A stretch of DNA of 40,805 bases from an uncultured Deinococcales bacterium (GCA_964247135.1 CAXTTL010000013.1:1-40805), one strand, 5' to 3'; numbered from the stretch's first letter, positions 1 through 40,805 are shown. The notes: generated by a model not told the origin, from the sequence alone. Numbers and translations are program-made.

Positions 1-53
1 AAAACTCGAGAGGTGCGGATTTCAAACCGATGTTTATGTTGTAATGTCGTTCA

Positions 54-239
54 TCACCTCCTTTTCAAGTGCTTTAAAACCCGAGGCAAGTCCAAACCTC
101 GAGCCAGCAAGATCAATTTCTGTACCGCAAGTTTGAAAACATTCCGCCGCTTGGGGACAAGACGACGCTGCTCAGCCTCGAACAGCAACTCCCTGATTTT
201 TTCATCGTTGAGTTTTTCCAAGTAATAATCGTTCTTCAC
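54..239 (-). CDS. Small basic protein (61 aa), probable paralog of 4231..4419
   Basis: GTG start with AAGGAGG RBS just upstream; shares the pattern L-x-D-[EK/R]-x2-L-x2-EA-x3-[R/L]L with 4231..4419. Confidence 0.65.
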   Translation of the reverse strand: MKNDYYLEKLNDEKIRELLFEAEQRRLVPKRRNVFKLAVQKLILLARGLDLPRVLKHLKRR

Positions 240-543
240 CGCTCACCTCCTTGTGGTGAACCGCATAAACCTCTGAACGCTCGAGATGCCACCGATGCCC
301 CAACCGTGACTGTTGATGAGCATGGTGGGCTTTGGACATCCTCCAAACGTCCACCAGCGTTTTGCGTTTTAAACACACTAAAGAAATCTGAGTGTGATCT
401 TGTCAATTCAGGTCAAGCAAAAACCTCGAGCAACCACGTACACGTCAAGCCAAAGATTAAAGCTCGAGTCGGGTGCAAGTTGTTTTTGACCTCGAGAGGC
501 AACAGCTTTATTTGGTTGCCTCAACAGAAAATGCTGGTTTTAT

Positions 544-919
544 TCACAAACCGAGCAACTGCCGTGAAAAATCACGCAACACCTGCGCAGCCCGTAAAAT
601 CGCCTGTGCTTCCTCGAGCGTCGGTTCGGGTTGATTGCCTGGGTAACGGTTTGGGACAACCGCCTGTGCGATCAACTCCGCCGCGCTGCGTTCCAAACTG
701 GGTGTTGTGCTCGGCAGCAACTCGAGCAAAGCCACCAGATCATGCGTGCGTGGGGCTGGGCACACCAGCCTGCAAAATGACCGCTTTGAGGTACTTCTCG
801 CAGGCTTGTGCCAACAACTAACACGCCCCTCGCGGGTGCGCTTCTATACCCTCGAGCGCATACTGAAAGTCATCTTCGGCATATGCCAACCAGTCTCTAG
901 AGTTATGGCTGTCGGGCAT
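544..919 (-). pseudogene. HEPN-domain toxin partner of the MNT, disrupted
   Basis: ATG at 919 overlaps the MNT end and reads MPDSHNSRDWLAYAEDDFQYA..AC*LLAQACEKYLKA. There is an in-frame TAG at 820-818 and a one-base frameshift near 758-765, after which PRTHDLVALL..NRYPG resumes (typical HEPN motifs). The span is 376 nt, i.e. 3n+1. Confidence 0.75.
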
Positions 920-1235
920 ACAACACCACACCATCACGCTTGGCTTCGAGCGACAAGCCATTTTGCGGGTCAAGGAAATCACGTTCGTGAAGCGTCACAA
1001 AATCCATTGGGAAACGCCGTGGACTGAATTCCCGTTGCGCCCTTAAACCCGCCTCGAGCAAATTGCTGTGATCGTCAAGCACCAACAACAAGTCCAAATC
1101 ACTGTCTGGCAAAGCCTCACCTCGAGCAACACTGCCAAACACCAAGACCAGTTTTGCGCCAGAAGCCACGCCCGCACGTTGCGCGATTTCCCTCAAAGCC
1201 GATTGAGACTGTGGTGGAGGCTCGAGCGTTGGCAT
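903..1235 (-). CDS. Minimal nucleotidyltransferase (MNT) antitoxin
   Basis: VFGSVARGEALPDSDLDLLLV (GS-x10-DxD) motif, 110 aa; TAAACT 6 nt before the ATG. Confidence 0.9.
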   Translation of the reverse strand: MPTLEPPPQSQSALREIAQRAGVASGAKLVLVFGSVARGEALPDSDLDLLLVLDDHSNLLEAGLRAQREFSPRRFPMDFVTLHERDFLDPQNGLSLEAKRDGVVLYARQP

Positions 1236-1364
1236 GAAATCAGTTTAGCATCCAGGCATAACGCATTCAATTGAGCGACCTGAATGCCCTTTGGTCGGGC
1301 GTTTGTTCTTGCCATAAAATGGAAAATTTACTTCCGTCTTGCCCATGATAAGCTGCGACACCAC

Positions 1365-2152: not shown

Positions 2153-2163
2153 AAACTCGAGCG

Positions 2164-3846: not shown

Positions 3847-3879
3847 CTCTTAACTCCTACACAACCTAATATGGATTCG

Positions 3880-4601: not shown

Positions 4602-4772
4602 TTAACGCAAACCTGGTGGTCTGAACGGCGGCGGCAACCCGCGAAGGTAAGTGTTTAGTGCCTCGAGGTTGTAAAACACGCGCTTAGTGGTGTCTTTTTC
4701 CTCGAGAATAAGCGTCCAAGGGTGGGTGGCGGTGGCGGGTTGAATGCGAATGTGAAACTCGAGTTGCTGCAT
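4602..4772 (-). CDS. Small protein, 56 aa, below the ORF-track cutoff: MQQLEFHIRIQPATATHPWTLILEEKDTTKRVFYNLEALNTYLRGLPPPFRPPGLR
   Basis: AGGAGG RBS at 4786-4781, ATG at 4772, TAA at 4604-4602; three in-frame CTCGAG (LE) sites as in host genes; own promoter and terminator. Confidence 0.75.
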   Translation of the reverse strand: MQQLEFHIRIQPATATHPWTLILEEKDTTKRVFYNLEALNTYLRGLPPPFRPPGLR

Positions 4773-4792
4773 GGTGCTGACCTCCTGAGTGG

Positions 4793-4825
4793 AGGGTAGC
4801 GGATGGGGCGTAACCTGAGCGTGAT
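4793..4825 (-). promoter_or_regulatory. Promoter/operator ATCACGCTCAGGTTAC-N11-TACCCT
   Basis: 15/16 identical to 4511-4526 with the same spacing to a -10 hexamer. Confidence 0.65.
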
Positions 4826-4955
4826 ATTGGCTCGTGTGCTGCTAAACTAATGATAAAAGTAAAGACGCATTCGTGAGCAAAATTACATTGACCTGAAAAT
4901 CTCTGCCTCAACTCAAAAGCAAAATGCAGGGTAATAAAAATTAGCAAGCATTCAA

Positions 4956-5447
4956 CTATTGCAAGCGATGAGCAAAAAATCTGTGAAGAATTTCAAACTC
5001 AGATTGTCGAGTCCTTCCAGAAATTCCCTCATTGTTAAAAATCATAATTAAGTTATATTTTTTATTTATGTCTTCTTCGAGGAATGTTAGATGTCCGCTA
5101 AATTCCTCTGACAAAAACTCTCTTATTAAGTCTTTGTCTACGTGCGAAACATCTATTTGAATTTTATTTAAATTTTCAAGTTGAATTTTACCCTTAATTG
5201 TTATGCTAGGTGTAATTTCATTATCTAAATCTAGGATTAAACTAAAAGTATCATTTACAAGTAAGTTAAAAATTTCTAATGAAATTGAATCAAAAGTTAA
5301 TTTAACTAATTTAGTTTTTGGTGGTCTAATTCCACCATTTAATGGGAGAATACTAATTGAATCAATTTTAAATTGAATCTTATTCTCTGTTTCATATATT
5401 ACATGTATTTCCAGTAGAATTATATCTATATTTTCAGTATTCATCAT
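4956..5447 (-). CDS. AT-rich hypothetical protein (163 aa)
   Basis: Long open frame in very AT-rich DNA; AGGAGG RBS at 5461-5456. Confidence 0.7.
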   Translation of the reverse strand: MMNTENIDIILLEIHVIYETENKIQFKIDSISILPLNGGIRPPKTKLVKLTFDSISLEIFNLLVNDTFSLILDLDNEITPSITIKGKIQLENLNKIQIDVSHVDKDLIREFLSEEFSGHLTFLEEDINKKYNLIMIFNNEGISGRTRQSEFEILHRFFAHRLQ

Positions 5448-5539
5448 ATGTATAGCCTCCTATTTTTAAACTATTACTATTTATATTAATAGTAAGTTAC
5501 ATATCTATAAGCGTTTATAATTTATTAAATTAGTAATAT

Positions 5540-8500
5540 TTAATTCAAAAATTCATCAAAGCCAAATTTACTTAAAAATATTAGGCGCTCTTTTTTTTCT
5601 AAAGAATTTGCTAATTTTTTAGCAGTAGTATAAATTTCTTCCTGAATTTTGTTTAATAAGTCAAATTTATTCAGTATAATTAAATTATTTAATATTGCAT
5701 ATCTTAATTTTAAAGCTTCAATAGCAGGTATTTGTTTTTCTGAAAGAATTTTCAACCCATCTTTAATATTAATTAATCTATTTTCCGAATTTAAAAGATT
5801 CAAACGCAGTTTGATAGAGAGTAGCATTGGATATAAAGGATAGTTTCTTTGAAATTTTTCAAAAATCTGATTTAACTGACTAAAATTTTCACTTTGCATA
5901 TAAATTTCTGCAAGTAGCCATAAAACTGTTGATTTTTCTTCAAGATCAAGCTTTTTAAAGTTAAAAAGATTAATTAATCTTTTTTCAGCTTTTTTAAATT
6001 TAAAGTTTTCAACTTCATAATGCGCAAAAAGTATTTCAAACCAAGATTTAAATGCATCTAATTTAGCTTGAGTTTGTATTTTTTTTACCTCTTTTAGAAT
6101 TTTAAATGCACTTAAAACATCACCAAATTCAAGATACATTTTAGTATAATTTAAACGTTCATGTATTTGTAGGCGTACAAGAGAGTGCGTATCTGCAATT
6201 TTAATAGATTCAATTGAACTTTTGAGAGCACCACCAAAGTTTCCATTTGCACGTTGAATTAAGCTACGAAGGGAAAGAAAAGTAGATTCATCTCGTGGGT
6301 CTTTTGGGGCACTTGATAATTGGAGTCCTTCATCAACAAGTGGAAGAGCAGATTCAAAATCATTTTCATAAAGAAAAGAGTTTGCCAAGTTAGATAATAC
6401 TAATCTTTGCCAAGGAACATATCCGATAAAACGTGAACTTGCAAGAGCCTGTTTCAAATAAGAGCGTGCAACTATATGGTTGTCTGCAAAAATTTCTATA
6501 ACACTTCCAATATTTAGTGCTAATATTTCGCCTGAATAATTTTTAATTGCTCGGAATGCTGTTAGTGCTATCTCAAAGTGCTGACGACCTGAAGTAACGT
6601 CTCGTTTTTCAAAATCACAATTTGCCAACGTATTATTTAACCGTCCAATCAATTCAAATGCTGTCTTTGGTGCTCTCTCAAGCCCCATCTTTAACAGTTT
6701 TTCCGCTTCTGCAATCCGTCCTAACCTCACCATTGCATTTCCAGCCTCGAGATGCGCTCGAGCCATCCACTCATTAGGTACGTCTTGTTGCTCGAGTATT
6801 TCTGTGGCGTGCTCGAGGGCTTTGTGGTACTGCCCAGAGTAAAAGTAAAATTCCGCCAGCCCAAGTCCAGATTCAATCTCGAGGTTGCGCTCACCAAGGT
6901 ACGTGGCGATTTCGATGGCGGCATGAACATCTTCGCTCCACCCAATGCGTTCGTCCAAAGCTTTCCACAGCGCGGCTCGAGCGGTGTGAATGCGAAATTG
7001 CTCGTGTTCGCTCACGCCAAGCTCGAGGGCGCGGGCGTAATGTACCAGCGCGTCGCGGTAGGCGTACACGGCTCGGGCGGCTTCGGCGGCTTTGATGCGC
7101 CACGGGGCAGCTTGGGTCTTCAGGTCGGCTTGCTCGAGGTGGTCGGCAATGCGGGCGGGTTGTCCGTGGTTGGCTTCCAGGGTGGCGGCGAGGCGTTTGT
7201 GCAGCAGCTTGCGGCGGTCTGCGCCAAGGGCGTTGCTGAGGCTGCGGCGGATCAGGTCGTGGTGGAAGCGGTGTCCTTGCGGGTTGGGGCGTAAAATGCC
7301 GGCGCTGCTGGCTCGCTCGAGGGCTTCCAAACCCAGCCATTCGTCCAGGGCGGTGGCTTGGGTCAATTCGGAAAGTTGAAAGTCGTCTCCGGTCAGGCTG
7401 GCGGCGTCGAGCATTCGGCGCACGGCGGGTCTAAGGCGGTCGATGCGTTGCAGCACGGCTTGACGCACACTTTGCGCCAGGGGAAGTTCGGCGTAATCTT
7501 CGGTCTGGGCATCATAAGGGGTGCTCCAGACACCGCTCGGGTCTTTGAACAGCGTTCCAGCCTCGAGCAGGTCGCGCAGTGTCTCGAGGACGAACAGGGG
7601 GTTTCCGGCGGTGGCATCGAACAATCGTTTGGCAAAAATCGTGCCGCTGGTGCTGCCACTGAGGGCTTGTATCAGGCTGAGAATCATGGTCTCATTCAGT
7701 GGCTCGAGGCTGATGCGGGTCAGCAGTCCATCGCGCTCGAGGTGCTGTATGGCTCGGGTCGCGGCGGGGTTTTCGCTCAGTTCGCTTGGTCTGGCGGTGG
7801 CAATCAATTTGATGCCTGCGGCTTTGGCGCGTTTGGAGAGTTGCACCATCAGTTCGCTGCTGGTCGCGTCAAACCAGTGAAAGTCATCGAGCAGCAGTGT
7901 GCCGCTTTGTTGCACGGCGGCAATCAGGGCGTGGGTCAAGCCTTCCAAAAATCGGGCGCGACCTTCTGGCAGGGCTTCTGTGGCGGCGCTGGGTGCATCT
8001 GGCTCGAGTTCTGGCACGAGTCTGGCGGCTTCGTGTCGCCAGATGGTTTCCAACTCGAGGTTCTGGCTGGCAAGATGCGCTCGCAGGGCGCTCGCCACGG
8101 GGAACAAGGGCGTGCCGCTCGAGAGTTCCTGACCGCTTAAAACCAAAGTGTTGCCGCTGGCGTGGACAAATTCTGTCGCCAGTCGGGTTTTGCCGACACC
8201 TGGTTCGCCCTCAATCAAAATCAGGCTGGCTTCGCTGGTCTCGAGTTGCGTCCAAAATTGATCGCGTCCGATCATGGGCGGGGTTTGAAATGGATTTTCG
8301 CTTGGCGCGGCTTTGGCGGGTTTGAGGCTCAGGTTTCGTCCTGAGCGAATCCGTTCGGCTAAACGCAAGGTTTCGGGCAGAGGCTCGAGTCCAAGTTCTT
8401 GCTGCAAAATCTGGCGGCAGCGCTCAAACCGCGCCAACGCCTCTTTGCGCTCACCCAGCATCGAATGCAGGCGCATGGCTTCACGGTGATGGTGCTCTTG

Positions 8501-9031: not shown

Positions 9032-9198
9032 CGTTTCATCTCCTGTGGCGTAATTCTTGCATGGTAGCAAAGAATGAGCTTTCAGATGCAAAGTTGCGTC
9101 TGAGACAACATCAGGACTTGATTTTCTCGAGCCGCTCAGTCTGGTTATTGGGGTTCGGCTTCACCATTTGTTCACCCTCCAACCCTTAAACTTTACGC

Positions 9199-11846: not shown

Positions 11847-11929
11847 AAATTGAATCTCGAGCTTTGAAAACGCCCTGTACGTGTGACCAAATCTCGAGTT
11901 TGCAGATTTTGGTTTGGTATGGTGCTGGC

Positions 11930-12064
11930 GTGTGGCGAAGATTGATTCCAATGCTGGTGATGACGTTTGTTATTTTTTACGTTTGGCGAGAAGCAGAACT
12001 TAAAGTTTTCAAACCAAACAAATCTCGACTCGACCATACTTTTGATCAGCTTGAAATGTCATAA
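11930..12064 (+). pseudogene. Truncated 5' remnant of a third paralog of 9735..10904
   Basis: TATGGT-6nt-GTG start; MWRRLIPMLVMTFVIFYVWREAE aligns with MWHRLISALAIVIILLFVWQEVK; stops after 44 aa beside the AT-rich island. Confidence 0.5.
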
Positions 12065-12175
12065 TTGGTCAGAATACGTTTCAGAAAAACGGAAAAGACT
12101 TTACGAGCAAGAGGTAAAAATCAAAGCCCGAGTTTCGAGTTTCGAGAATAAACTGAGTTTAATAAAGGAGTTAAA

Positions 12176-13357
12176 ATGCCAGAAAATAATATTACTTTAA
12201 ACTTAATAAAAGATACGAAATTACAATGTTATTCCATTATCACAACCACAGATACAAAAAGTTATCTTAATATTGTTGAGAAAGCATATAAAGACAAGGG
12301 AGGAATAAGAGGTCAAAGAGACCCTTTAAAAACAAGTAGCGCAATCAGAATTAGAAAAAGAATGATAGATGACCTAAAAAATGGTGCGGTTATACCACCA
12401 ATTGTAATCGGAATAGTGATTGATGAAGATAAGTTTCAAGATATAGAAAAAATGAATGAGGCAGATTTTTCTAATTTTATTTTACAATTAGAAAAAAATC
12501 AAATTTCAATTATAGATGGAATGCAGAGAACAACAGCACTTACAGAAATTGAGGACCTAAAAAGCTATAAATTAAGAGTTGAATATTGGATTTCAACAAA
12601 TATAAACAGCTTAATTTATAGAATGCTTGTTTTAAACACTGGTCAAGTTCCTTGGAACATTAGAAGGCAAGTAGAGGTTGTTTTTGATTCACTAATAGAA
12701 GAATTAAAAACAAAAATTACAAGTACAGGTTTTCAAATACATAAAACTGATGATAAAAAGCGACGGGTAAGATCAGGTGTATTCCAAGCAGATCAAATTA
12801 TTGAATTATACCTAGTATTTGGCGCAAGAAAAGAAAACATTAATAGGCAGGAAAAATTAGCTGATGAATTTGCGCGTCTTGATTTTATAGAAGCTACGTC
12901 AAATTATCAATTTACAGATATTTTTAGTGACGTTTTGAATATTTTGATTCAATTTGATCTTGTTTTTGAAAAATTTGAAGGAAATAACATTGATGGGCGC
13001 TTTCAAATTGGAAAAGACTTATTTAGCAGTGAGCCAGCACAAGCTGGTTTAATAGCTTCTTTCGCAATAAAGATCATGGGAAGACCAGGAAGCCCAGAAA
13101 AATCTATAGAAATGCAGCAAGAAAAATTAACAGAAATTAAAGCGTCGGCAGGCATACTTCTTCAACGGCTCGGCGCTATGAATTCGCAACAAATGGGTGA
13201 ATTTTTGGACTTTGAAACATTAAACTCGGTAATAGGTGGAAAAACTTCAGGTGCTGTTGGTGATTTTGAAAGGTCTGTTTTTTTAAAAGCATTTGAAACA
13301 CTGATAAACGAAGAGTTTAGAGTTGATTCAATGACTGTTTGTTGGAGATCACATTAA
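12176..13357 (+). CDS. DUF262/DGQHR (ParB-superfamily)-like protein
   Basis: IPPIVIG..IIDGMQRTTAL..LNTGQVP motifs; AAGGAG RBS; AT-rich. Confidence 0.7.
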   Translation: MPENNITLNLIKDTKLQCYSIITTTDTKSYLNIVEKAYKDKGGIRGQRDPLKTSSAIRIRKRMIDDLKNGAVIPPIVIGIVIDEDKFQDIEKMNEADFSNFILQLEKNQISIIDGMQRTTALTEIEDLKSYKLRVEYWISTNINSLIYRMLVLNTGQVPWNIRRQVEVVFDSLIEELKTKITSTGFQIHKTDDKKRRVRSGVFQADQIIELYLVFGARKENINRQEKLADEFARLDFIEATSNYQFTDIFSDVLNILIQFDLVFEKFEGNNIDGRFQIGKDLFSSEPAQAGLIASFAIKIMGRPGSPEKSIEMQQEKLTEIKASAGILLQRLGAMNSQQMGEFLDFETLNSVIGGKTSGAVGDFERSVFLKAFETLINEEFRVDSMTVCWRSH

Positions 13358-13359
13358 AA

Positions 13360-14421
13360 ATGTCAAGAAATATGATAAATACTCATATAAAAGTCTTTGA
13401 TATGCTTAAAGACTTTGTTTTATCAAATGAAGCTAACTTAGAAATTAACCCTTCGGCAGTAAGATATATTTCATGCAACGATAGTGAAGAAAAAATACTA
13501 AAAAATTTAATAATTGATTCTAGAATACCAGTATACTCAGGATTATTAATAGCATTTTGCACACATAATGATACAGAAAACAATGTAGAAGAAAAATACT
13601 TTGTGATTACTGGCAAAAGAAATTTTTCACTACAAGAAGAATTTCTTCAAGAAATAGACTTAAACGCTGGATTTGCAACATGTCTAATAGGCGACTTGGA
13701 AATACCTATTAAAGATGATTACAGTCACTTGAACATCGTAAATGAAATCCTTTTTCTTTACAAAGGTAGTAGCTCAGAATTATATACTGGACATAACTTT
13801 TCAGATATTATTAAACCTTTTGAGCATATTTTAGTCTTCAAAATTTTACCTAACTGTCCAATTAAATTTGAGGATTCTTTCAAATTTTCGTGTTTTGCTT
13901 GTATAAAAAACAAAAAGAAAATATTACTTCTTCCATTTTCTGATAAATTAACAACTTTATTGGAAGATTTAATATTTGAAAACGAAACTAAATTTCCATT
14001 TGAAAATACTTTTTACGCACTAAACTCAACCAAATGGGAATATGTATTTCTGGAGTTTTATCGATGCGTGGAAAAATTTTTTCCTATTGTTTTAACTTCT
14101 AGACTATACGCAGATTTAGGACTAGGAATAGATGTTTTTGAATTTTCCAACAAAATTGAGGGACTCTTAAACTGGAAAGCCAAAGAAGATCAAGCAATTA
14201 AATCAATTTTTAATGATTTACCAAAGGAAATGACTAGAATTCTAACAGGTATCACTAATGAAAATTTAGGTAAGTGGTACTATGGTTTAAGGAATAAAAT
14301 AGTCCATCACCGAAAAAATGAATCGAAAATTAGTATTACAGACAAAGATTGGAATCAAATTATGGAATTTTCTATAAATTTAATAGATTTTTTTTATAAA
14401 AAATATTCCAAATTCATCTAA
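13360..14421 (+). CDS. Protein with C-terminal HEPN-like RNase motif
   Basis: FLEFYRCVE helix and YGLRNKIVHH (R-x4-H) near the C-terminus; ATG follows the upstream stop after a 2-nt gap. Confidence 0.65.
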   Translation: MSRNMINTHIKVFDMLKDFVLSNEANLEINPSAVRYISCNDSEEKILKNLIIDSRIPVYSGLLIAFCTHNDTENNVEEKYFVITGKRNFSLQEEFLQEIDLNAGFATCLIGDLEIPIKDDYSHLNIVNEILFLYKGSSSELYTGHNFSDIIKPFEHILVFKILPNCPIKFEDSFKFSCFACIKNKKKILLLPFSDKLTTLLEDLIFENETKFPFENTFYALNSTKWEYVFLEFYRCVEKFFPIVLTSRLYADLGLGIDVFEFSNKIEGLLNWKAKEDQAIKSIFNDLPKEMTRILTGITNENLGKWYYGLRNKIVHHRKNESKISITDKDWNQIMEFSINLIDFFYKKYSKFI

Positions 14422-14484
14422 ATTCGAATCTATAACTTCTATAATTATTTAGTACAAAAAATTCCCATGAGAATTAGGTTCAAT

Positions 14485-16725
14485 CTATTCTTGATGCTTC
14501 TCAACTTCAATCCCAGCGAACAACACCCGCACTATCCTCGAGAATGCCATGTCATCCGCGTGCCTGTAAGCTTGCAAGAATCGCTCGAGTTGGTAGTGTT
14601 TGGCTTCTTCGGCAACCAGTTTGGGACTCGAGCGGTAGGATTCGATTGGTTTAAACTCGAGTGGACGAAGTTCATTGAGTAACTCGAGCACCTGAGGTGA
14701 GAATGGCTCGCCGCGTTTGCGGGCTTGTTCGGCGATCTTTAGTTTCTCGAGCGTCCACGATTCGCGGGTTTCAAGGTCAACCAGAGTGCGTTCGGTGAAG
14801 GCAAATTGCAGTTGCACACCCGCTAAAATCCAAGCCTCGAGCAAGTCCAAACTGGGCATTGAAATCAAAGTCAAACTTGAAACGAAATCTGATGAATTGT
14901 GCAATGGAATCGTTGGGTAATTTTTGCTCACAAACTCGAGCGCCGCACCATCGGCGAACACAGCACTCGGCTCGAGTTTGAGTTTCTCGAGCGTGGTTTT
15001 GGTATCAGTACGCGGGTAATTCAGACCGCCGTCCAAATCTTCCTCGAGAAGTTTGAGGCTGGATTGATAACGCATTTTGACGGTTGAAAACTCGAGACTG
15101 CTTCTCCCCTGCCAGAGGTTTTCTTCGACTTGCACGGCGGCATCGACGCGATCACCACCCGCGAATGGCACGCCAACGCCCCATTGCTTGCCTTTTAATC
15201 CACCGGCGCGGTACTGAAAATGCTTGCCATCCTTGCCCAAGCTGCCCGCCGCCTCGAGCGTTTCGCGCAGCCAGAACACGGGGGCAGGGTTGCCCTGCCC
15301 GAACGGTTCGAGCGATTCGAGGTGCTTGATGAGGGTGCTCGAGATGTCGCGCGGCGCGATCATGGCGTCGCAGGTCACGGTTTCGAGTGGTTCTGGGTGA
15401 CGGGCGGCAAACTCGAGGATGCTGGCACGAAAATCGGGGATGCTGGCATCGTGAAGCGCAAAACCGCCAGCCGCCGTATGACCGCCGAAGCGTTTCAGGT
15501 GGCTCGAGGCGTGGGTCAACGCTTTCACGGCGCTGATGCCAGGGGTCGAGCGCACACTGCCTTTGCCCGCCGCGATGATGAATACGGGTTTGTAAAAACG
15601 CTCGAGCAATTTGGACGCCACAATGCCCATCACGCCAGGATGCCAATTGTCTTTGGTCACAACCAGCGCGGGCGCTTCGGGGTCAACAATCAACAATGCT
15701 TCACGGTACATTTCGTCTTGAACTTTTTTACGCTCGAGATTTCGGGCATCAAGGTAGGTGGCGAGTTCCAGGGCGCGACGTGGACTGTCCGTGGTCAGCA
15801 GCTCGAGGGCAACATTGGCTTCACCGAGCCGCCCAGCCGCGTTGACCCGAGGCGCAATCATAAAACCGACATCTTTGGCAGACACCGTTTTTAAATTCTT
15901 CGCGTCCACCATCGCCCGAATGCCCACCCACCTCGAGTTTGCCATGCGTGCCAGACCAAATTTGACCAGCGCCCGGTTTTCGCCCAAAAGCGGTGCAAGG
16001 TCTGCCACCGTACCGATGGTGGCAAGGTCGGCATAATCCCAGGGTGGCTCGAGTCCTAGGGTTTGGCGCACCGCCCAGAGCAAGTGAAACGCCACGCCAG
16101 AACCCGTGAGCGCTGGCAAATCGGGATGAAAGTTTGGCGCAAGCGCAGGATGCACGACCAGACAACCTGGCAGGTCATGCCCAGGTGCGTGATGATCGGT
16201 GACAATCGCCTCTGCGCCACCCGCCACAATCAAGGCAATTTCGGCAAGGTTGCTGACGCCGCAATCGACGGTGATGAACAAATCACAACTCTCGAGGTGC
16301 TCGGGCACACGGTCGGGATGCACGCCGTAACCATCGGTCAAACGGTGCGGAATAAACGTGTGAACATTCGCGCCCAACTCGCGCAAACCCAGCATCAACA
16401 GACTTGCGCCTGTGATGCCGTCGGCATCGTAATCGCCGTGAATCCGAATGCGTTTTTTGGCATTGATCGCCGCAATGATTCGCACCGCCGCCTCGAGCAG
16501 CGCAGGGTTGGGACTTAAAGCCAGCTCTGGCTCGAGCGCGTCGGCGCTGTGAATGCCCCTGGCGTACAAAATCGCGGCGATTTTGGGCGGCAAACCCAGG
16601 GTTCTCGAGAACACCTCGAGCTTGGCGATGGGTGCGGGCGCACGAAGTCGCCATTGCACGGGACGGACACGTTCGATGGGGACAGTCTCGAGGGTTGGGA
16701 CAGGTTTGCTCGAGATGATGGTCAT
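14485..16725 (-). CDS. recJ: Single-stranded-DNA exonuclease RecJ
   Basis: HGDYDADG, ITVDCG, TDHH, GTVAD, PRVNAAGRL, GSVRS, FGGH, LEPFGQGNP; C-terminal extension. Confidence 0.96.
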   Translation of the reverse strand: MTIISSKPVPTLETVPIERVRPVQWRLRAPAPIAKLEVFSRTLGLPPKIAAILYARGIHSADALEPELALSPNPALLEAAVRIIAAINAKKRIRIHGDYDADGITGASLLMLGLRELGANVHTFIPHRLTDGYGVHPDRVPEHLESCDLFITVDCGVSNLAEIALIVAGGAEAIVTDHHAPGHDLPGCLVVHPALAPNFHPDLPALTGSGVAFHLLWAVRQTLGLEPPWDYADLATIGTVADLAPLLGENRALVKFGLARMANSRWVGIRAMVDAKNLKTVSAKDVGFMIAPRVNAAGRLGEANVALELLTTDSPRRALELATYLDARNLERKKVQDEMYREALLIVDPEAPALVVTKDNWHPGVMGIVASKLLERFYKPVFIIAAGKGSVRSTPGISAVKALTHASSHLKRFGGHTAAGGFALHDASIPDFRASILEFAARHPEPLETVTCDAMIAPRDISSTLIKHLESLEPFGQGNPAPVFWLRETLEAAGSLGKDGKHFQYRAGGLKGKQWGVGVPFAGGDRVDAAVQVEENLWQGRSSLEFSTVKMRYQSSLKLLEEDLDGGLNYPRTDTKTTLEKLKLEPSAVFADGAALEFVSKNYPTIPLHNSSDFVSSLTLISMPSLDLLEAWILAGVQLQFAFTERTLVDLETRESWTLEKLKIAEQARKRGEPFSPQVLELLNELRPLEFKPIESYRSSPKLVAEEAKHYQLERFLQAYRHADDMAFSRIVRVLFAGIEVEKHQE

Positions 16726-29850: not shown

Positions 29851-30327
29851 ATGAGATGTAAAATTCTGGTCACAGGCATGTCGGGCACAGGAAAATCCAG
29901 CGTCTTGCTCGAGTTGGCACGGCGTGGACACCAGGTTGTGGACACCGATTCGGAGGAGTGGTGTGAATGGGTGACTTCCGACGGCGAACCCGACTGGATT
30001 TGGCGCGAGGAAAAAATCAGGGCGTTGTTGACCTCTCACTCGAGCGGACTGCTTTTTGTGGCGGGATGCAAGTCAAATCAAGGCAAGTTTTACCCGCAGT
30101 TTGATGCCGTGATACTCCTCAGCGCACCAAGCGAGGTTATTTTGAAACGCATCGAGACTCGAGACACCAACCATTACGGCAAGAACCCACTCGAGCGCCA
30201 AAAGATTCTCGAGCATCTGGAATGGGTCGAGCCGTTGTTGCGTGCGACTGCCACGGCAGAAATTGATGCCAGCAAACCGTTGTCTGAAGTCGCGGATGAA
30301 CTTATCGCAATTGGGTCAGGTTGGTAG
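29851..30327 (+). CDS. P-loop kinase (shikimate/nucleotide kinase-like)
   Basis: ILVTGMSGTGKS, VDTD, LSAP..ILKRI. Confidence 0.8.
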   Translation: MRCKILVTGMSGTGKSSVLLELARRGHQVVDTDSEEWCEWVTSDGEPDWIWREEKIRALLTSHSSGLLFVAGCKSNQGKFYPQFDAVILLSAPSEVILKRIETRDTNHYGKNPLERQKILEHLEWVEPLLRATATAEIDASKPLSEVADELIAIGSGW

Positions 30328-30381
30328 GGTGCGCCTCGCGCACCGTCGTTTAAACCCTGCGGTGCGCGAGGCGCACCCTAC
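30324..30381. repeat. GTAG REP doublet (REPIN-like)
   Basis: Perfect 22-bp inverted repeat GTAGGGTGCGCCTCGCGCACCG with a 14-nt spacer; each arm is itself an imperfect palindrome. Confidence 0.8.
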
Positions 30382-31215: not shown

Positions 31216-33615
31216 TTACCCTCGAGCGCCCTGTCTGACCACGTTTTTAACATCCCGCACCTCGAGCAAGGCATCTTTGATGAACTGGTACTCGTCTTGG
31301 TTGCGGACTTCAAAACGCAGGTAAATGTGCGCTTCAAAGCTGCTGGAAACGTTCGCCTCGACTTTTAAGGCGCTCTTTTTCAAACGATCCAAAACGTCCA
31401 GCACATCTTTTAACAGTCCACTGCGGTCGCTCGAGATCACGTCAATGTCCACGGTTTGGCTGCCGAAGGCGCTGGCGTCCCAACTGGCGTTGACCACGCG
31501 GTTGGGTTCCTCGAGCCGCCAACGGTTGATGGTCGGGCAGTCGTCGCGGTGAATCGTCACGCCGCGCCCTCGGGTGATAAATCCGGCAATCGCGTCGCCT
31601 TTGATCGGTTTGCAGCACTGCGCGAATTTGATCGGGGTGTTCATGCCTTCAACGTACACGCCACTCACCACGGGTTTTTTAGGGGTTTTGGCATTTGGCA
31701 CACTGGCAATCGGTTGTTCGGCTTCTGGCGCTAAAACCCGAGCCACCTGCACCGGACTGAGGCGGTTGGCGTGCAGGTTGATGTACAAATCGTCGGGGTT
31801 TCTCGAGCCGAGCAATTTTTCGGCGGCATCCTCGAGGTTTTTGGTGCGCATCAGCTTACGGGCTGGTAGACCGCGTTTTTTCAGGTAACGGTCGAGAATG
31901 GTGTGCCCCATCAAGAGCGCATCGGCACGTTCTTGCACGCGGAAGAACTGGCGAATTTTGGCTTTGGCACTGCGGGTTTTGGCGATGCTCATCCAGTCTT
32001 TGCTGGGTCCTGGGCTGTTGCGGTTGGTGATGATTTCAACGCGGTCGCCATTGTCGAGTTCCTGTGAAAGTTGCACAATATTGCCGTTGACCTTCGCACC
32101 GATGGCATGGTGTCCAATGTTGGTGTGAATGTGGTACGCCAGATCGATTGGCGTCGCGCCCTGCGGCAAACTGATGGTGTCGCCCTTTGGCGTAAAAACA
32201 AACACGCGCTGCCCGAGCAAATCTTGTTGCACCGCATCGACAAAATCGCCCGCATCTTTGATCTCGCTCGAGAGCGCCTCGAGGCTGGAAATCCAGTTCA
32301 TGCCCTTGCGCAGTTCGTCCAGCCCTTGCGAGCGCTGCTCGAAACCCGTGCCGTCCTCGATGCCCTGCTTGTAGAGCCAGTGCGCGGCAACGCCGTACTC
32401 GGCGACAGAATGCATTCGGTTGGTGCGAATTTGCACCTCAATCGGTTGTCCCTCGAGCGAGATCACGGTGCTGTGCAAACTCTGGTAGCCGTTGGGTTTT
32501 GGCACGGCAATATAATCTTTGAACCGCCCAGGAATGGGCGTCCAGATCGAGTGAATGATGCCCAGCGTGTGATAGCAAACCCGTTTTTCTCGGGTGTCCT
32601 CGGCGAGCATTTTGGCGCGGTCGTGCTTTTCGCGCTGCACGGTCACGGGGTCAGTTGGGTCTGGCACAAAATCGAGTTCGGTTTCGGTGACTGCTCGCGG
32701 CTCGAGGATCACGCGAATGGCGAGCAGGTCAAAAATTTGCTCTAAATGTTTGGTGTCGCGGTGCATTTTGGTGTAAATCGAGTACAAATGCTTGCTGCGC
32801 CCAGAGACATCGAACGAAATCAACCACCGCCCAAGTTCGCGGTCGGTCTCGAGGTTTTTCAGTAAATCATTGATGGCGCGTTGCACGTAATCGTCGCGTT
32901 CGGTTTGCTTCAAGCGAATCTGCGTTGCCAGCTCTTTGTAGGCTTCAGGCTCGAGGTATTTAAAACTCAAATCCTCGAGTTCCCATTTGATCTGCCCGAT
33001 GCCCAGGCGGTGCGCCAAGGGCGCGTAAATGTCGCGGGTCTCTTTGGCGATGCGCACCTGTTTGTCTACACTCATGCTGTCCAGCGTGCGCATGTTGTGC
33101 AGACGGTCTGCCAGTTTGGCAATGATGATCCGCACGTCCTTGGTCATGGCAATTAAAAGTTGCCTTAAGTTCTCGGCTTGTTCATCCTCGAGCGCATCTT
33201 TGGCACGCTTGGAGAGCTTACTGACTTTGGTTTCACCCTCGACGATCCGTGCGACTGCCACACCAAATTCGCGTTCGACATCCTCGAGCGTGGCGCTCGT
33301 GTCCTCGACGGTATCGTGCAATAAACCCGCCAGCAGCGTATCCACGTCGGGTTGCAAGCCCGCCAAAATTGCCGCCACCGCCACCGGATGCGTGATGTAA
33401 GGCTCGCCCGATTTGCGCATCTGTCCGTCGTGGGCAAAGGTCGCAAAACGGTACGCCAGTTCGACTTTGGCGCGTTGGGCGGCGTTCAGGTACTCGAGTT
33501 TTTCCAGGAGTTCTGGATAGCCGTGCATCCCCAGCAGCGCCTCGCCACCAAAAGTCCGCCATTCGCTCGAGAGTGGCACAACAGAATCGGTGGAGGTGGC
33601 TTTGCTGGCGCTCAT
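31216..33615 (-). CDS. relA: Bifunctional (p)ppGpp synthetase/hydrolase Rel
   Basis: RKSGEPYITHP, LLHDTVED (intact HD), KLADRLHNMRTL, RFKDYIAVPKPNGYQSLH, EVQIRT, TGS, CC and ACT regions; start at 33615 supported by TACACT-7nt-ATG. Confidence 0.95.
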   Translation of the reverse strand: MSASKATSTDSVVPLSSEWRTFGGEALLGMHGYPELLEKLEYLNAAQRAKVELAYRFATFAHDGQMRKSGEPYITHPVAVAAILAGLQPDVDTLLAGLLHDTVEDTSATLEDVEREFGVAVARIVEGETKVSKLSKRAKDALEDEQAENLRQLLIAMTKDVRIIIAKLADRLHNMRTLDSMSVDKQVRIAKETRDIYAPLAHRLGIGQIKWELEDLSFKYLEPEAYKELATQIRLKQTERDDYVQRAINDLLKNLETDRELGRWLISFDVSGRSKHLYSIYTKMHRDTKHLEQIFDLLAIRVILEPRAVTETELDFVPDPTDPVTVQREKHDRAKMLAEDTREKRVCYHTLGIIHSIWTPIPGRFKDYIAVPKPNGYQSLHSTVISLEGQPIEVQIRTNRMHSVAEYGVAAHWLYKQGIEDGTGFEQRSQGLDELRKGMNWISSLEALSSEIKDAGDFVDAVQQDLLGQRVFVFTPKGDTISLPQGATPIDLAYHIHTNIGHHAIGAKVNGNIVQLSQELDNGDRVEIITNRNSPGPSKDWMSIAKTRSAKAKIRQFFRVQERADALLMGHTILDRYLKKRGLPARKLMRTKNLEDAAEKLLGSRNPDDLYINLHANRLSPVQVARVLAPEAEQPIASVPNAKTPKKPVVSGVYVEGMNTPIKFAQCCKPIKGDAIAGFITRGRGVTIHRDDCPTINRWRLEEPNRVVNASWDASAFGSQTVDIDVISSDRSGLLKDVLDVLDRLKKSALKVEANVSSSFEAHIYLRFEVRNQDEYQFIKDALLEVRDVKNVVRQGARG

Positions 33616-33673
33616 GGGTTGCAGTGTAACGTTCCAAAGAAATTCTGTAAAACCAGGACGTACAATTGGGGTC

Positions 33674-34546
33674 GTGAAACTCGAGCCGTTACAGCCCCAA
33701 AATGCTTTGATCGCGCTCGAGTTTTCCGTTGGCATTCAATCTCGGGCAGTGGCATTAAAAGGTTATCTCGAAGAGTTGTTGCAGAGTCTCGAGCAAAGTT
33801 TGGCTCGAGCATTCGCAAGCGTGACGTTGCTGGTTTTCAACCAAGCCGATTGGGTCAAAAATGCGCCTTACCCTTACGGGTTCACGTTTTACCGACGCCT
33901 GAAAAACGCTCAGGGGCTTATTTTCGCCCCTGCCGATTACCCCGCCCGAATGCTCTGGACTTACCGCGAGGTTGTGCTTCAAGCCCAAAAGGCAGGCATC
34001 AATGCTCCAGGCACACTCGAGGAATTCTTTGATTTAACCCTCGGGCACGAACTGGGTCATGCGGTCGCCGATCAACTCGAGCTTCGGACAAAGGTACGCT
34101 GGATTGACGAATTTATGGCAACCTTTTTGTACCTGTTGGCGCTCAAAAATACCAACCCAGAGGCGCTGGCGCGGGTCTTGCAATGGGCAAAAATTTTTGG
34201 TGTCGCCAGCCCCGAGAACACCCTCGACTCGAGCCTGACCAAACCCGCCGGCATTCGGCTCAAAAAAGCCAAAAAACGCCTCGAGCAAGCAGGGGACAGT
34301 CAAGTCAACCGCACCGATTTGGGCGCGTTTGAATTTCCATTTTCGCGTTTAACCACCGCCAACCAAGCCTGGTTTCAAGCTCAACTGTTACAACAGGCGC
34401 ACAGCATCTTGGAGGCTCGAGGGGCAGATTTTGTGATTCAAGCCAGCGAGCAATTCAAAAACACCAAAGGGCGCGGCGAAATCTCGAAGCTACTCTTGAA
34501 ACTCGAGCCTGGGTTGAGGGCTTGGTTTAAGGTTTTTGGCAGTTAA
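33674..34546 (+). CDS. Hypothetical protein with HExxH zinc-peptidase-like motif
   Basis: GHELGHA..WIDEFMA; TACAAT-7nt-GTG start. Confidence 0.65.
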   Translation: MKLEPLQPQNALIALEFSVGIQSRAVALKGYLEELLQSLEQSLARAFASVTLLVFNQADWVKNAPYPYGFTFYRRLKNAQGLIFAPADYPARMLWTYREVVLQAQKAGINAPGTLEEFFDLTLGHELGHAVADQLELRTKVRWIDEFMATFLYLLALKNTNPEALARVLQWAKIFGVASPENTLDSSLTKPAGIRLKKAKKRLEQAGDSQVNRTDLGAFEFPFSRLTTANQAWFQAQLLQQAHSILEARGADFVIQASEQFKNTKGRGEISKLLLKLEPGLRAWFKVFGS

Positions 34547-38600: not shown

Positions 38601-39065
38601 GAAATCACGAATGACACCGCCTTTGAACGCTCCAGATTTTTTGAGACACACATCATGCTCGAGCGCGGCGACGGTTTTATCATGCAACTGCCAGAGATCA
38701 AAAACCCCGAAGACCAAGACATGTTGCATTTGCTCGAGGTCGAACACGCCCTCAGCTTTGGCAATTACGCCACCGCCCTCGAACTGACCCACCAACCCAA
38801 CCTCGAGTACGCCTGGTTTTGGGCGCTGGCAAAACTTCATGCCACCTGGCGGCTGGGGTTAGAAACCGACGCGGCGCTGCTCGGGTTTCAAAACGCTCCA
38901 GCCCCAAGCCTCAAATCGAGTTTGCACCAAACGTACTCGAGGTTTATCCATCAGGTTTTCAAGAAAGACATTGACGAGCAGAGCCTTAAACTGCAAGCCG
39001 AGGCATTGTTTCAAAGCTTGATCGGTATTTTCGCTCGAGATGTCGCCCTTTCGCTGCGCGATTGA
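35658..39065 (+). CDS. Hanks-type Ser/Thr kinase + STAND-type ATPase + TPR protein
   Basis: GQGAMG, VAIK, HRDLKPEN, DFG, YMAPE; Walker A GDVGSGKT; ENLHWAD; GNPWVLEE; FRFRHPL; C-terminal TPRs. Confidence 0.92.
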   Translation: MSVAESDRYQFVKDLGQGAMGRVSLALDRVSGELVAIKRLHEVVALQGGARLRREFRALERIEHPNVLKVLGFGDDRGLPFLVMEYVRGTDLNDWLEQKPKLADIVRVFAGVASALSAVHAQGIVHRDLKPENIRVTAAGEAKLMDFGLAKSLQGSVALTKAGAVVGTVLYMAPEQCRGAQLDYRADLYALGAVLYSALTGRPPFVGDGLAQVVMQHISQTPVTPRQFNPGIPNKLEALILLMLEKNPLDRPQSALAVREALLGILEEPTADLGASSAETARADALLVAPLIGRDLELGSLLPLLERPPETGVVAVTGDVGSGKTRLLRAFSERARNVGVRLAVGEAIEHDPTPFGAVSRLILDVQRNNKGILEALPETARAELARIAPTLGEVPAPDSGLPADVARLRLFEAFTKLLELLCSVTPVVFENLHWADASTLELLAHATRSAENPRVIISYRVEDLPEETTVPKGLKPKRVINLQALPDSAMQELLVAWLDSSIDPTLVNELVLHAAGNPWVLEERLKAMLEAGAVFRRGGMYEWNRSLLGLPSGLNELLAHRLAALPANALEFARAGSVLGRAWMFDDAKGLLGWGDDAALDALEALVRAKLVSEIPGSNGEGFRFRHPLYTDILTSSIMSLKRRKMHAKAATLLEGRAAAIELCIHYLEANAFEKALEKGFEAGLLAQNTFAYPQAERAYRLALEAAEHLEMPNLMVLKVQHQLAEVLSIGGRNSEAIKLWEDVIEHAPSLEGGAEVLAQAKVSLVKVLRFTASLEHSLELLGEPIVGTPFFEELCAELAAVYIRTGKWDQARMYAIRALKAARKTGKLETEALALRHLAWMESNRNKRFRQVDKLMALSIAKAEASGNNHVLSSIWVDRGTLYNREKCFDDATQAFEQASKYIQKTANIKLQATIAVNLAISLENQDEFEEACQSLEPAILLAKRAGYTMIERPATFNLGTYKYALGKFDEALAIFKQLQEITNDTAFERSRFFETHIMLERGDGFIMQLPEIKNPEDQDMLHLLEVEHALSFGNYATALELTHQPNLEYAWFWALAKLHATWRLGLETDAALLGFQNAPAPSLKSSLHQTYSRFIHQVFKKDIDEQSLKLQAEALFQSLIGIFARDVALSLRD

Positions 39066-39155
39066 TTTACACAAGGGTTACCTCTGAAACTGAGTATTTT
39101 GCTGGTGAACCTATAATTTTTTTGGAAGGGCTATAATTAAAACAGGAGGTTTGTC

Positions 39156-39836
39156 GTGAAAAAATATCTGTTGATTTCCGCACTGGGATTGTCGGTGATC
39201 CTGTCATCGTGTTTTCTCATTAAAGGACTCAGGGTTGAAGTGCCAGGCGAAAATCCTGTCGGTTTGAATGGTAAATCCATCGACGTTGGCTCGAGCGGCG
39301 TGGGTCGCCCAGAATTGATGTCCAACCGCGTTGCCAAAGCCTTTAATGCCGCCATCACCGACGCCACTTTTGAAGACACCCCAAATATTTCCACCGAATT
39401 CAACAAGTACGGCATCAGCGTCGGTGGCTTAACGGCTTGGGGCGCGTGCGTTAAATTCTCTGGCAGCGCCACCCTCAAAAACAACACTGCCGCCGTTCCA
39501 GCCGCGATCACCTTAAGCGACGTTTCTGCCGAATTGACTTTGAAAGACGCTATTAACGCAGGGATTTCCTTCACCCTCAAAACCGATCCCGCCAATGCCA
39601 GCGTGACCTTAAACAACACCACGGCAAACAATTACAGCTTTGACCCCAGCAAACTCGTGCTTTGCGCCAGACTCGAGACGGCAAGCCTGACCCAACTGGT
39701 CGGTATCCTCGAGTCAGGTGGGACAAACACGGTCTCTGGTACGCTGAAATACAGCCTAGATGGCATCAGCGGTTTAAGTGCGGGCAGCACGTTGACCCTG
39801 ACTTTTGGGGCTGGAAGCTCGTATATTATTTTGTAA
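39156..39836 (+). CDS. Hypothetical lipoprotein
   Basis: AGGAGG RBS, GTG start, lipobox LSSC; TATAAT boxes at 39112 and 39132. Confidence 0.8.
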   Translation: MKKYLLISALGLSVILSSCFLIKGLRVEVPGENPVGLNGKSIDVGSSGVGRPELMSNRVAKAFNAAITDATFEDTPNISTEFNKYGISVGGLTAWGACVKFSGSATLKNNTAAVPAAITLSDVSAELTLKDAINAGISFTLKTDPANASVTLNNTTANNYSFDPSKLVLCARLETASLTQLVGILESGGTNTVSGTLKYSLDGISGLSAGSTLTLTFGAGSSYIIL

Positions 39837-39960
39837 ATCCTTGATTTCTTTTGGGACGAAACCCGTCGGTAAGTGTTTCTTGACCATAAAACGCACCTTA
39901 CGGGCATGGTCGCTTCGTCCCTTTTGCTTCTCGAGGTATCTCTGCTACAATCCTCGAGCC

Positions 39961-40805
39961 ATGACCGAAGTTTTCACAAAACCAGATTTTCACCGCAGCC
40001 GCCTCGAGACGGGTCGTGCGGTGCTTGCACCGATGGCAGGTTTTTCGGACGCACCGTTTCGCTTGTTGTGCCGCGAATTTGGGGCTGCCTGGGCGGTCAC
40101 CGAAATGGTCTCGAGCATCGGTGTGCTGATGAACGGCAAGAAGAGTTTTGAAATTGGCGAACCGTACCCTAATGAGCCTGATTTGGTGATTCAAGTCTTC
40201 GGCGCTGACCCCCAAATGGTCGGCGAAGCCAGCGCCAAACTGTACGAGGAATTCAAACCCGCCGCGATTGATGTCAACATGGGTTGCCCCGTGCCGAAGG
40301 TCGTGAAAAACGGTGGCGGTGCGTGCCTGCTGCAAAACCCTGACGCCGCCCAAGCCATCATCTCGAGCATGAGCCGTAGCGTTCCAGTACCGGTCAGTGC
40401 CAAAATCCGTTTGGGTTGGGATAAATTCAACGCCATCGAGGTTGCACAGGCGCTCGAGGCTGGCGGCGCAAACTGCCTCGCACTTCATGGGCGCACCCGT
40501 TCGCAGGCGTACACGGGTTTTGCCGATTGGGACAAGATTCAAGCGGTTCAGGAAGCCATCAACATTCCGCTGGTCGGCAGTGGCGACGTTGTGACCGCCC
40601 AGCAATTCAATGAACGCAAAGCCCGAGCCTCGGGCGTGATGATCGGACGCGGCGCAATCGGACGCCCCTGGATTTTTGCTGAGGTTCAAGGTGGCGCGAC
40701 CCTCGAGATTCCCGACATCGTGCGTCTGGCGTACTGCCACGCGCTGTTGAACGTCGCCTGGTACGGCGAGTTAAACGGAATGCGGCAAATTCGTGGACCG
40801 CTCGG
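39961..40805 (+). CDS. dusB: tRNA-dihydrouridine synthase (runs off the window end)
   Basis: LAPMAGFSD, TEMVS, IDVNMGCPVPKV, SAKIRLGW, LHGRT, GVMIGRGAIGRPWIF; absent from the ORF track because no stop lies in the window. Confidence 0.92.
   Translation, partial: MTEVFTKPDFHRSRLETGRAVLAPMAGFSDAPFRLLCREFGAAWAVTEMVSSIGVLMNGKKSFEIGEPYPNEPDLVIQVFGADPQMVGEASAKLYEEFKPAAIDVNMGCPVPKVVKNGGGACLLQNPDAAQAIISSMSRSVPVPVSAKIRLGWDKFNAIEVAQALEAGGANCLALHGRTRSQAYTGFADWDKIQAVQEAINIPLVGSGDVVTAQQFNERKARASGVMIGRGAIGRPWIFAEVQGGATLEIPDIVRLAYCHALLNVAWYGELNGMRQIRGPL

Follow-up and report, generated by a model that had tools for sequence, protein, structure and literature searches.

CTCGAG is a highly iterated palindrome in one uncultured family of Deinococcales

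For three decades the highly iterated palindromes of cyanobacteria have resisted explanation. HIP1 (GCGATCGC) and the alternate cyanobacterial palindromes are short, GC-rich words that occur far above expectation in all reading frames and in spacers, are conserved above background, extend through whole lineages with exceptions, are missing from islands and have a debated mechanism (PMC4390886, PMC5861425). The same studies quote for HIP1 an abundance of 15- to 300-fold over expectation and a distribution that is periodic on a 10-90 kb scale (Xu et al. 2018, PMC5861425), together with a density of 300-2,700 per Mb and a cognate, usually orphan, methyltransferase (Elhai 2015, PMC4390886). Here we describe the hexamer CTCGAG in a 40,805-nucleotide stretch of DNA from an uncultured Deinococcales bacterium (the window), in the genome to which it belongs and in relatives of that genome. 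As an earlier note on the window had proposed, CTCGAG behaves like a highly iterated palindrome: it shows a many-fold excess, this excess is independent of codons in all frames and in spacers, its sites are conserved above background, and the trait is family-wide. Unlike HIP1, CTCGAG is a hexamer rather than an octamer, is a different word in a different phylum, reaches 6,660 per Mb, and was found without a cognate methyltransferase co-occurring with it. HIP1 proper is not what this genome carries, as CGATCG has only 47 copies (0.034 of expectation) and Deinococcales are not cyanobacteria. A full-text literature search, with supplementary tables outside its reach, found no publication on CTCGAG hyper-abundance in this phylum, and both CTCGAG and 'Deinococ' are absent from the main text of the two main papers on highly iterated palindromes (PMC4390886, PMC5861425). 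With CTCGAG, the class of highly iterated palindromes gains a new word and a new phylum, at a density above that of HIP1 and without the methyltransferase signature.

The uptake signal sequences (USS) of Pasteurellaceae/Haemophilus and the DNA uptake sequences (DUS) of Neisseriaceae resemble CTCGAG in that they lie genome-wide in genes and spacers, shape proteins, are rather evenly spaced and are absent from foreign DNA. Biased uptake and recombination can explain these words without direct selection, and both the uptake bias and the receptor have been shown experimentally, whereas CTCGAG is known here from genomes alone. Uptake sequences also differ from CTCGAG in being 9-12 bases long, non-palindromic and present about once per kb. 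In the Dcm/Vsr system, with its excess of CCWGG in E. coli, repair tied to a methyltransferase site likewise biases evolution toward that site; unlike the pattern described here, however, the effect is small and the T:G precursors are depleted, whereas the CTCGAG excess is 25-fold, its precursors are undepleted and no Vsr was found. Restriction-site avoidance is also word-level selection on short palindromes and is extreme in this genome, but CTCGAG is opposite to it in sign.

The window is the entire contig C13 of an assembly of 5,091,702 bases in 386 contigs, with an estimated completeness of 84% and contamination of 1.8%. We counted 291 copies of CTCGAG in its 40,805 bases (7.13 per kb), compared with 7.25 +/- 3.00 copies (maximum 17) in 100 shuffles that preserved dinucleotides. 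Exactly 11 copies fall in the first 1,200 bases (at 5, 98, 280, 425, 463, 491, 613, 721, 851, 1053 and 1121), as had been counted by hand. The genome as a whole holds 33,925 copies, or 6.66 per kb, about one per 150 bases, which makes CTCGAG its commonest hexamer by far; the runners-up are overlapping sub-words of CTCGAG. The observed count is 24.8 times the expectation of a Markov model of order 0, 35.2 times that of order 1 and 14.4 times that of order 2. At orders 3 and 4 the ratio falls to 3.45 and 1.24, but these orders are uninformative as nulls because their sub-words consist mostly of CTCGAG itself: the word accounts for 88% of CTCGA occurrences and 62% of TCGA occurrences.

The excess also stands against nulls that hold codons fixed. 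Our gene set came from crude mechanical calling of open reading frames (ORFs), which gave 3,740 ORFs that do not overlap, have 150 codons or more and together cover 4.1 Mb. These ORFs contain 26,787 copies of CTCGAG, 7.2-fold more than the 3,742 +/- 45 left by a synonymous shuffle in which codons were exchanged inside each gene, retaining the protein and the codon usage of that gene, and 16.8-fold more than the 1,590 +/- 40 left by shuffling codon order. All three reading frames are used (16,399, 4,173 and 6,215 copies), the Leu-Glu frame holding 61% of genic sites. CTCGAG spells 77% of the 21,281 Leu-Glu pairs, whereas about 5% would be predicted; outside this pair, CTC accounts for 15% of Leu codons and GAG for 33% of Glu codons. 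The density in 1,387 spacers of 30-250 bases each (148 kb in total) is 9.47 per kb, 46-fold over composition, compared with 6.53 per kb in genes, where it is even along the length (6.3-6.95 per kb per decile). It reaches 12.65 per kb in the first 30 bases past stop codons and is back down within about 60 bases. Examples of CTCGAG directly after gene ends are seen in the window at 2156 and 11856. The spacing of sites is a little more regular than random, with a variance/mean of 0.91 at 500 bases, gaps of 300-800 bases at 0.73-0.86 of the exponential expectation and an under-representation of gaps shorter than 20 bases as well, although this evenness is a small effect judged against a plain exponential rather than a null with coding constraint. 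The excess of CTCGAG is a DNA-level effect, neither a codon-usage nor an amino-acid effect, which agrees with what the earlier note had held from its occurrence in every frame and between genes. The pressure is strongest where coding imposes no constraint, and it overrides synonymous codon choice.

Comparison with relatives indicates what the pressure acts on. We aligned about 86 kb with five congeneric genomes (84-88% identity), with overlapping loci removed. Identity per base is 94.5% within CTCGAG, drops to 82-85% in the nearest nine bases and stands at 86-87% more than 46 bases away, and base preferences around the word are weak (G before at 0.39, C after at 0.38, A at -3 and T at +3 at 0.37). 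The unit under pressure is the exact six bases CTCGAG. A repeat element as carrier of the word was ruled out, its flanks holding almost no information. In the same alignment 530 of 666 CTCGAG sites (79.6%) are common to congeners, compared with 44.5% for all other hexamers, and CTCGAG ranks first in retention among the 222 hexamers with at least 60 occurrences when duplicate loci are included. Congeners have the identical pair for 321 of 379 in-frame CTC-GAG (84.7%) and for 10,765 of 23,991 other codon pairs (44.9%). Where the dipeptide is conserved, the values are 321 of 357 (89.9%) for CTC-GAG and 53.8% for other codon pairs, and CTC and GAG codons outside CTCGAG are retained at 54% and 70%. 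This retention reflects either purifying selection or biased conversion acting on CTCGAG, and divergence data separate neither from the other. Near-variants with one change occur at or above expectation, and the deamination products of the site show no depletion (CTTGAG, 1,442 copies; CTCAAG, 1,436).

Individual sites turn over between genera. We followed those in recJ and in the relA/spoT homologue of the window (Table 1). Within the genus, 25 of 28 and 26 of 28 recJ sites and 16 of 17 and 12 of 15 relA sites are shared. For recJ the sharing falls to 9 of 27, 10 of 26 and 9 of 25 with loci at 64-67% protein identity, to 6 of 27 and 3 of 15 with two more distant word-rich loci, to 0-4 of 16-25 with eight Truepera-like loci and to 0 of 117 comparisons with six Deinococcus loci; for relA it ranges from 2 of 18 to 9 of 15 across seven genomes of other genera. 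In summary, 80-94% of sites in the two genes are common within the genus, and 11-60% are common with word-carrying loci of other genera. The pressure maintains the density of CTCGAG, not its individual positions.

The pressure has also altered protein sequences, raising the frequency of Leu-Glu. Relative to amino-acid composition, Leu-Glu occurs 2.38-fold, Glu-Leu 1.01-fold and Ser-Ser 1.63-fold in this genome. Comparisons between genomes used a single best match per protein and aligned columns only. Across 195 proteins matched in Deinococcus-like DNA, the same columns hold 999 Leu-Glu here and 399 there (observed/expected 2.34 and 1.02), compared with 447 and 377 Glu-Leu. Across 236 proteins matched in other genera of the family, Leu-Glu counts were 1,370 and 1,274, with ratios of 2.32 and 2.22. 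An alternative count that retained repeated recJ matches gave the same pattern.

To place the trait among relatives we used recJ, whose product has a Deinococci-type C-terminal domain. The search retrieved records titled Deinococcales, Trueperaceae and Deinococcus, the nearest being titled Deinococcales. The seven nearest loci (L001-L006 and L024) carry 6.1-8.9 CTCGAG per kb, a 20- to 30-fold excess. The remaining loci without Deinococcus in their titles (Trueperaceae, Deinococcales, Deinococcota and metagenome-assembled genomes) carry 0-3.3 per kb, mostly 0.8-3.3. Among loci titled Deinococcus or uncultured Deinococcaceae (range L036-L079), 28 of 29 lie at or below 0.5 of the expected count and one at 1.5; two loci titled 'Deinococcaceae bacterium' lie at 4.6 and 6.7. 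The lineage-wide distribution suggested by the earlier note was borne out in the window's own family, where all 12 sampled genomes, from five genera and with GC contents of 0.46-0.63, are enriched: samples of 1.7-20 kb give an excess of 9.7- to 32.5-fold, and larger samples of 28-120 kb, available for seven of the genomes, one of 13.6- to 28.1-fold. In other families we found an excess of 4.8-fold (f2), 5.7- and 7.5-fold (f4) and 3.0-fold (f5), and a single CTCGAG in 100 kb of a Deinococcus genome (f3). The reversed word GAGCTC is also enriched in f4 and f5 (2.3-2.6-fold), so part of the CTCGAG excess there is a CTC/GAG codon effect. We further sampled 150 genomes of the phylum, a draw that included no other genome of the window's family, for three copies of CTCGAG within about 100 bases. 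This genome has 990 such clusters, compared with 0-112 in f5, 0-81 in f4 and 1-58 in f2; only 3 of 82 f3 genomes have any, with one match each, and the reversed-word control gave 0-14 matches. CTCGAG hyper-abundance is a trait of one uncultured Deinococcales family, and Deinococcus shows the opposite, depletion. A second case of this kind outside cyanobacteria would turn a curiosity of one lineage into a phenomenon that can be compared. Sister lineages span near-absence to hyper-abundance of the word, which makes phyletic profiling for reader or writer genes possible, an approach already applied to HIP1 (PMC13756078); if this is indeed a HIP-like system standing beside CTCGAG-poor Deinococcus, the function of such a palindrome may be found by comparison.

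Among at least 80 matching loci in viral DNA, some contigs reach 3-6.8 CTCGAG per kb at GC contents of 0.58-0.70; four IMG/VR contigs (L255, L243, L213 and L239), with GC contents of 0.67-0.69, carry 4.3-6.8 per kb, 13-20 times what composition predicts. These loci were selected by the CTCGAG-cluster pattern and have no link to the window's family, so we draw no inference on phages from them.

Two stretches of the window lack CTCGAG altogether (Table 1). The earlier note had placed them at about 4765-6745 and 12176-14421, and the recount found zero copies over somewhat wider bounds. They are the fourth longest and the longest CTCGAG-free gaps of the 5.09-Mb assembly, which has 16 gaps of at least 1,500 bases where an exponential predicts 0.9. 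At the excess seen in core DNA, 3.2 and 4.3 sites would be expected in them, figures that are post hoc as the gaps were chosen as extremes. The note had further generalized the absence to AT-rich islands. This holds for the window's two stretches but not for AT-rich DNA generally: when the genome is divided into 1-kb windows and these are binned by GC content from 0.30 to 0.65, CTCGAG exceeds local composition 23- to 29.5-fold in all bins. In the genome's other long gaps lie an O-antigen ligase-like gene and genes for a reverse transcriptase fused to a trypsin-like protease, an AAA_21 ATPase, a GH30 hydrolase, an S41 peptidase and a solute-binding protein, as well as unmatched ORFs. An Rfam scan of six word-free stretches gave no match, so they are not RNA genes of known families.

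The first stretch takes in the tail of a STAND-like protein. Two congeners match only residues 11-819 of this protein, at 83-89% identity, and leave the tail unmatched; the GC content of the gene drops from 0.53-0.68 to 0.21-0.37 past codon ~800, and the tail has weak paralogues (24-25% identity) on contigs C5 and C174. The C-terminal module is a swapped, AT-rich, word-free cassette of recent origin. The second stretch lies within an insertion. In a congener (locus L002) its flanks are connected by 28 bases, and another congener carries a different 970-base filler at the position, so the site downstream of recJ is a hot spot of variation. Of the insertion's two ORFs, the first is a predicted member of Dazbog, a two-gene defence system against phages; this ORF has no Pfam match, and its partner has no match in Pfam, PADLOC (DzbB included) or NCBIfam. 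On this evidence both bare stretches are probably recent arrivals.

The density of the word more generally marks young DNA. The density of words that the genome otherwise avoids is 0.8 per kb in windows without CTCGAG but 0.125 per kb where CTCGAG is most abundant (Spearman -0.147), and since CTCGAG-poor windows are richer in avoided words, low CTCGAG density points to recent arrival. Imported DNA begins bare and then gains CTCGAG slowly, the slowness being evident from the turnover of sites between genera. The suggestion that local motif density can date acquisitions is supported by these counts and by the lack of matches to either island in the congeners compared. Combined with the purged sites, CTCGAG density offers a simple way, within this family, of marking recently imported DNA such as a defence island.

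Table 1. Features of the window (positions 1 to 40,805)
Feature	Position	Strand	Basis or remarks
CTCGAG field, 291 copies, 7.13 per kb	1..40805		Genes of both strands and spacers; count vs shuffles
CTCGAG-free gap 1, 1,982 bases, GC 0.30	4764..6745		Covers ORF 4956-5447 (-) and the C-terminal ~370 codons of ORF 5540-9091 (-)
STAND-like BTAD / AAA_16 ATPase / TPR protein, 1,183 residues	5540..9091	-	Pfam
Island 2, 2.65-kb insertion between beta-helix protein gene and recJ	11847..14496		Word-free 11899-14536, GC 0.30
DzbA-like gene, Dazbog-type anti-phage system (predicted)	12176..13357	+	PADLOC DzbA E 5.7e-49, residues 11-392 on profile 8-384 of 393
Partner ORF of island 2, 360 residues	13339..14421	+	No family match
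recJ, 28 CTCGAG sites; anchor gene for relatives and site ages	14485..16725	-	Pfam DHH, DHHA1, RecJ_OB, RecJ_C_Deinoc
relA/spoT homologue, 19 CTCGAG sites; second site-age gene	31216..33735	-	Pfam HD_4, RelA_SpoT, TGS, ACT_4

CTCGAG is the single palindrome pushed toward abundance against a background of purge. As many as 28 of the 64 hexamer palindromes lie below a tenth of expectation, compared with 160 of 4,032 other hexamers. GAGCTC is absent, and GGGCCC has 1 copy, CGGCCG 3, AGGCCT 4, CGTACG 5, GGATCC 7, CCGCGG 11 and CAGCTG 15; degenerate sites are purged as well (GRGCYC, 11 copies; RGATCY, 80). Across the 40.8 kb of the window avoided words occur six times, at 6052, 16055, 17433, 19806, 26717 and 32410. 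In other genomes of the family, between 7 of 32 and 34 of 64 testable palindromes fall short of a tenth of the expected count, and the set varies by genus. Outside the family the figures are 20 of 64 in an f2 genome (G013), 10 of 56 in an f3 genome (G014) and 0-6 in three f4/f5 genomes.

We then searched for enzymes that might account for either trend. The methyltransferase candidates of this genome comprise one large Eco57I/SNF2 fusion, two MmeI-like, one HsdM-like and one Dam-class enzyme, four N6_N4 genes or fragments and two C5 enzymes; methyltransferase ORFs lie on contigs C36, C207/C4, C14, C178, C189, C320, C169, C21, C192 and C112. Each of the six small type II methyltransferases adjoins a restriction endonuclease gene and is therefore no orphan. 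The sites of these neighbours, given here as those typical of their families and deduced from the family names, are CAGCTG for a PvuII-family neighbour (contig C36, E 9e-67), CCGCGG for Eco29kI (C178, E 8e-68) and GAGCTC for SacI (C320, E 8e-7), whose counts are given above; GGCC for NgoPII (C14, E 2.9e-85), with 380 copies (0.016 of expectation); CCSGG for MvaI/BcnI (C189, E 3.5e-64), at 0.066 of expectation compared with 1.15 for CCWGG; and, for a weak NotI-like match (C207, E 1.1e-5), GCGGCCGC, with 0 copies of 117 expected. Because the neighbouring endonuclease families match purged words, word statistics in this genome appear to respond to sequence-specific enzymes.

None of the six methyltransferase proteins searched across relatives is conserved in the family. 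A methyltransferase-like ORF of 466 residues that stands alone occurs in 3 of 12 family genomes, with in-frame stops in two, and the other five proteins, searched across 20 relatives, are patchy as well. One family genome in a single contig has no N6_N4 enzyme, and another (91% complete) has no C5 enzyme. All five family genomes searched have N6_Mtase matches, which are HsdM-sized or larger and are not common to this genome. No match to Vsr (PF03852) was found here with a profile that matched 3 of 14 known genomes as a control, and MutH was not found in this 84%-complete genome. The XhoI family (PF04555) has no match here or in any of 61 Deinococcus-like genomes, a blank that is uninformative because the control matched in no genome. 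Taken together, the lack of Vsr, of MutH and of a family-conserved methyltransferase, and the pairing of the small methyltransferases with endonucleases of other specificities, leave the methylase link that the earlier note had drawn without support. It should be kept in mind that unrelated methyltransferases may serve the same HIP1 site in different genomes, a possibility raised by Elhai 2015 (PMC4390886).

The reading that we favour, with a probability of about one in three, is that CTCGAG may act as a kin-recognition word for DNA uptake and/or homologous recombination in natural transformation. A preference for CTCGAG-bearing DNA in uptake or recombination would lead to its biased fixation and would thereby spread the word. 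The lineage is also rich in restriction systems, whose sites it has purged. We favour this reading because the pattern resembles uptake sequences in its effects on the proteome, its placement where constraint is weaker and its absence from foreign DNA, and because the spacing is slightly even, ComEC and DprA are present (each in 20 of the 21 genomes of the order, this one included) and an uptake role has been proposed for HIP1. Gains in transformation of 7- to over 100-fold with HIP1 sites, dependent on methylation, have also been reported. The flanks of CTCGAG, slightly less conserved than distant DNA, were counted as fitting an uptake or recombination word. In its full form, to which we assign a probability of roughly 0.3, the reading holds that CTCGAG would be an independently evolved kin-DNA word, read in uptake or recombination, in a lineage purged of nearly half of its hexamer palindromes under restriction pressure. 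If this is true, DNA of the family would be both recognizable, being dense in CTCGAG, and restriction-proof, being devoid of the sites of the pan-genome. Several points weigh against a kin-DNA word. ComEC and DprA are equally present in CTCGAG-depleted Deinococcus and so are not discriminating, and the genome analyses gave no evidence of uptake, of recombination or of a protein that reads CTCGAG. The parallel with HIP1 is weakened because the HIP1 effect depends on methylation and no candidate for a cognate CTCGAG methyltransferase was found here, in a genome 84% complete with type I and MmeI-like/IIG enzymes not resolved. Divergence data do not distinguish selection on sites from biased conversion, the even spacing is a small effect against a simple exponential null, and the analysis relies on crude ORF calls and an incomplete assembly.

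The alternatives each account for part of the pattern. A CTCGAG methyltransferase might mark the word, with repair of a very-short-patch-like kind, methyl-directed strand discrimination (the model put forward by Elhai for HIP1) or methyl-dependent uptake creating and keeping the sites. The weak G before and C after CTCGAG resemble the G...C frame of HIP1, and each of the five other family genomes searched has at least one methyltransferase of some class; HIP1 abundance accompanies CGATCG and GATC methyltransferases, with m5C and m4C enzymes interchangeable (PMC4390886), and CTCGAG-specific m5C methylation occurs in Halorubrum (PMC8112702). We nevertheless consider such a coupling unlikely, as neither Vsr nor MutH was found, the one-off variants of CTCGAG are not depleted, the small methyltransferases sit beside endonuclease genes of other families whose typical sites are purged, all six that were searched are patchy in the family, and single genomes do without N6_N4 or C5 enzymes. 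A drive without function, in which biased mismatch correction or gene conversion turns near-cognate sequences into CTCGAG to no use of the cell, would explain why the density is highest where constraint is lowest, why positions turn over at stable density and why proteins bear a visible cost. It is no more probable than methylation coupling: the Vsr, MutH and XhoI-family profile searches turned up no enzyme that could impose the bias, the single-change variants on which it would draw stand at or above expectation, and the trait is kept across five genera from GC 0.46 to 0.63.

An architectural role, with CTCGAG bound by an abundant dimeric nucleoid or chromosome-organizing protein and selection maintaining a site roughly every 150 bases, would be in keeping with the flat density inside genes and the slightly even spacing, and the periodicity of HIP1 has prompted the proposal of a structural role for that word (PMC5861425). 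Here, however, no candidate binding protein was found and conservation ends at the sixth base, whereas binding sites usually show conserved flanks, and we hold this role to be just as doubtful as the drive. Less likely still is a defence self-mark, by which CTCGAG would tag resident DNA for a nuclease system that spares word-dense DNA, or would serve as a decoy. The extreme purge of palindromes, the complete restriction-modification gene pairs and the bareness of incoming islands agree with a self-mark, but the genome tolerates the bare islands, one of which is a predicted defence system in its own right, and no sensing system was found. We know of no nuclease-based system that senses word density. 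The explanation that can be set aside almost entirely is an artefact of composition, codon usage, Leu-Glu richness, a dispersed repeat or assembly. The share of genic sites in the Leu-Glu frame and the co-enrichment of GAGCTC in f4 and f5 would have suited it, but it is ruled out by the excess over the synonymous shuffle, the excess in spacers and the complete absence of GAGCTC from this genome; moreover, the flanks are unconserved and the trait recurs in separately assembled genomes.

Other features of the window were noted in passing. The mechanically called ORF at 20468-23152 (+) is a predicted fusion of an IclR-type regulator (HTH_IclR, IclR_C) with an acetyl-CoA-synthetase-like AMP-binding enzyme. 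At 28123-28160 lies a stretch of 37-38 bases that contains a small inverted repeat (GATCCC...GGGATC); two congeners and further contigs of this genome carry it too, at 98-100% identity. At 30324-30381 is a GTAG...CTAC hairpin repeat, about 58 bases long and with no CTCGAG inside, which resembles REP elements and has copies at 84-91% identity on several contigs here and in congeners.

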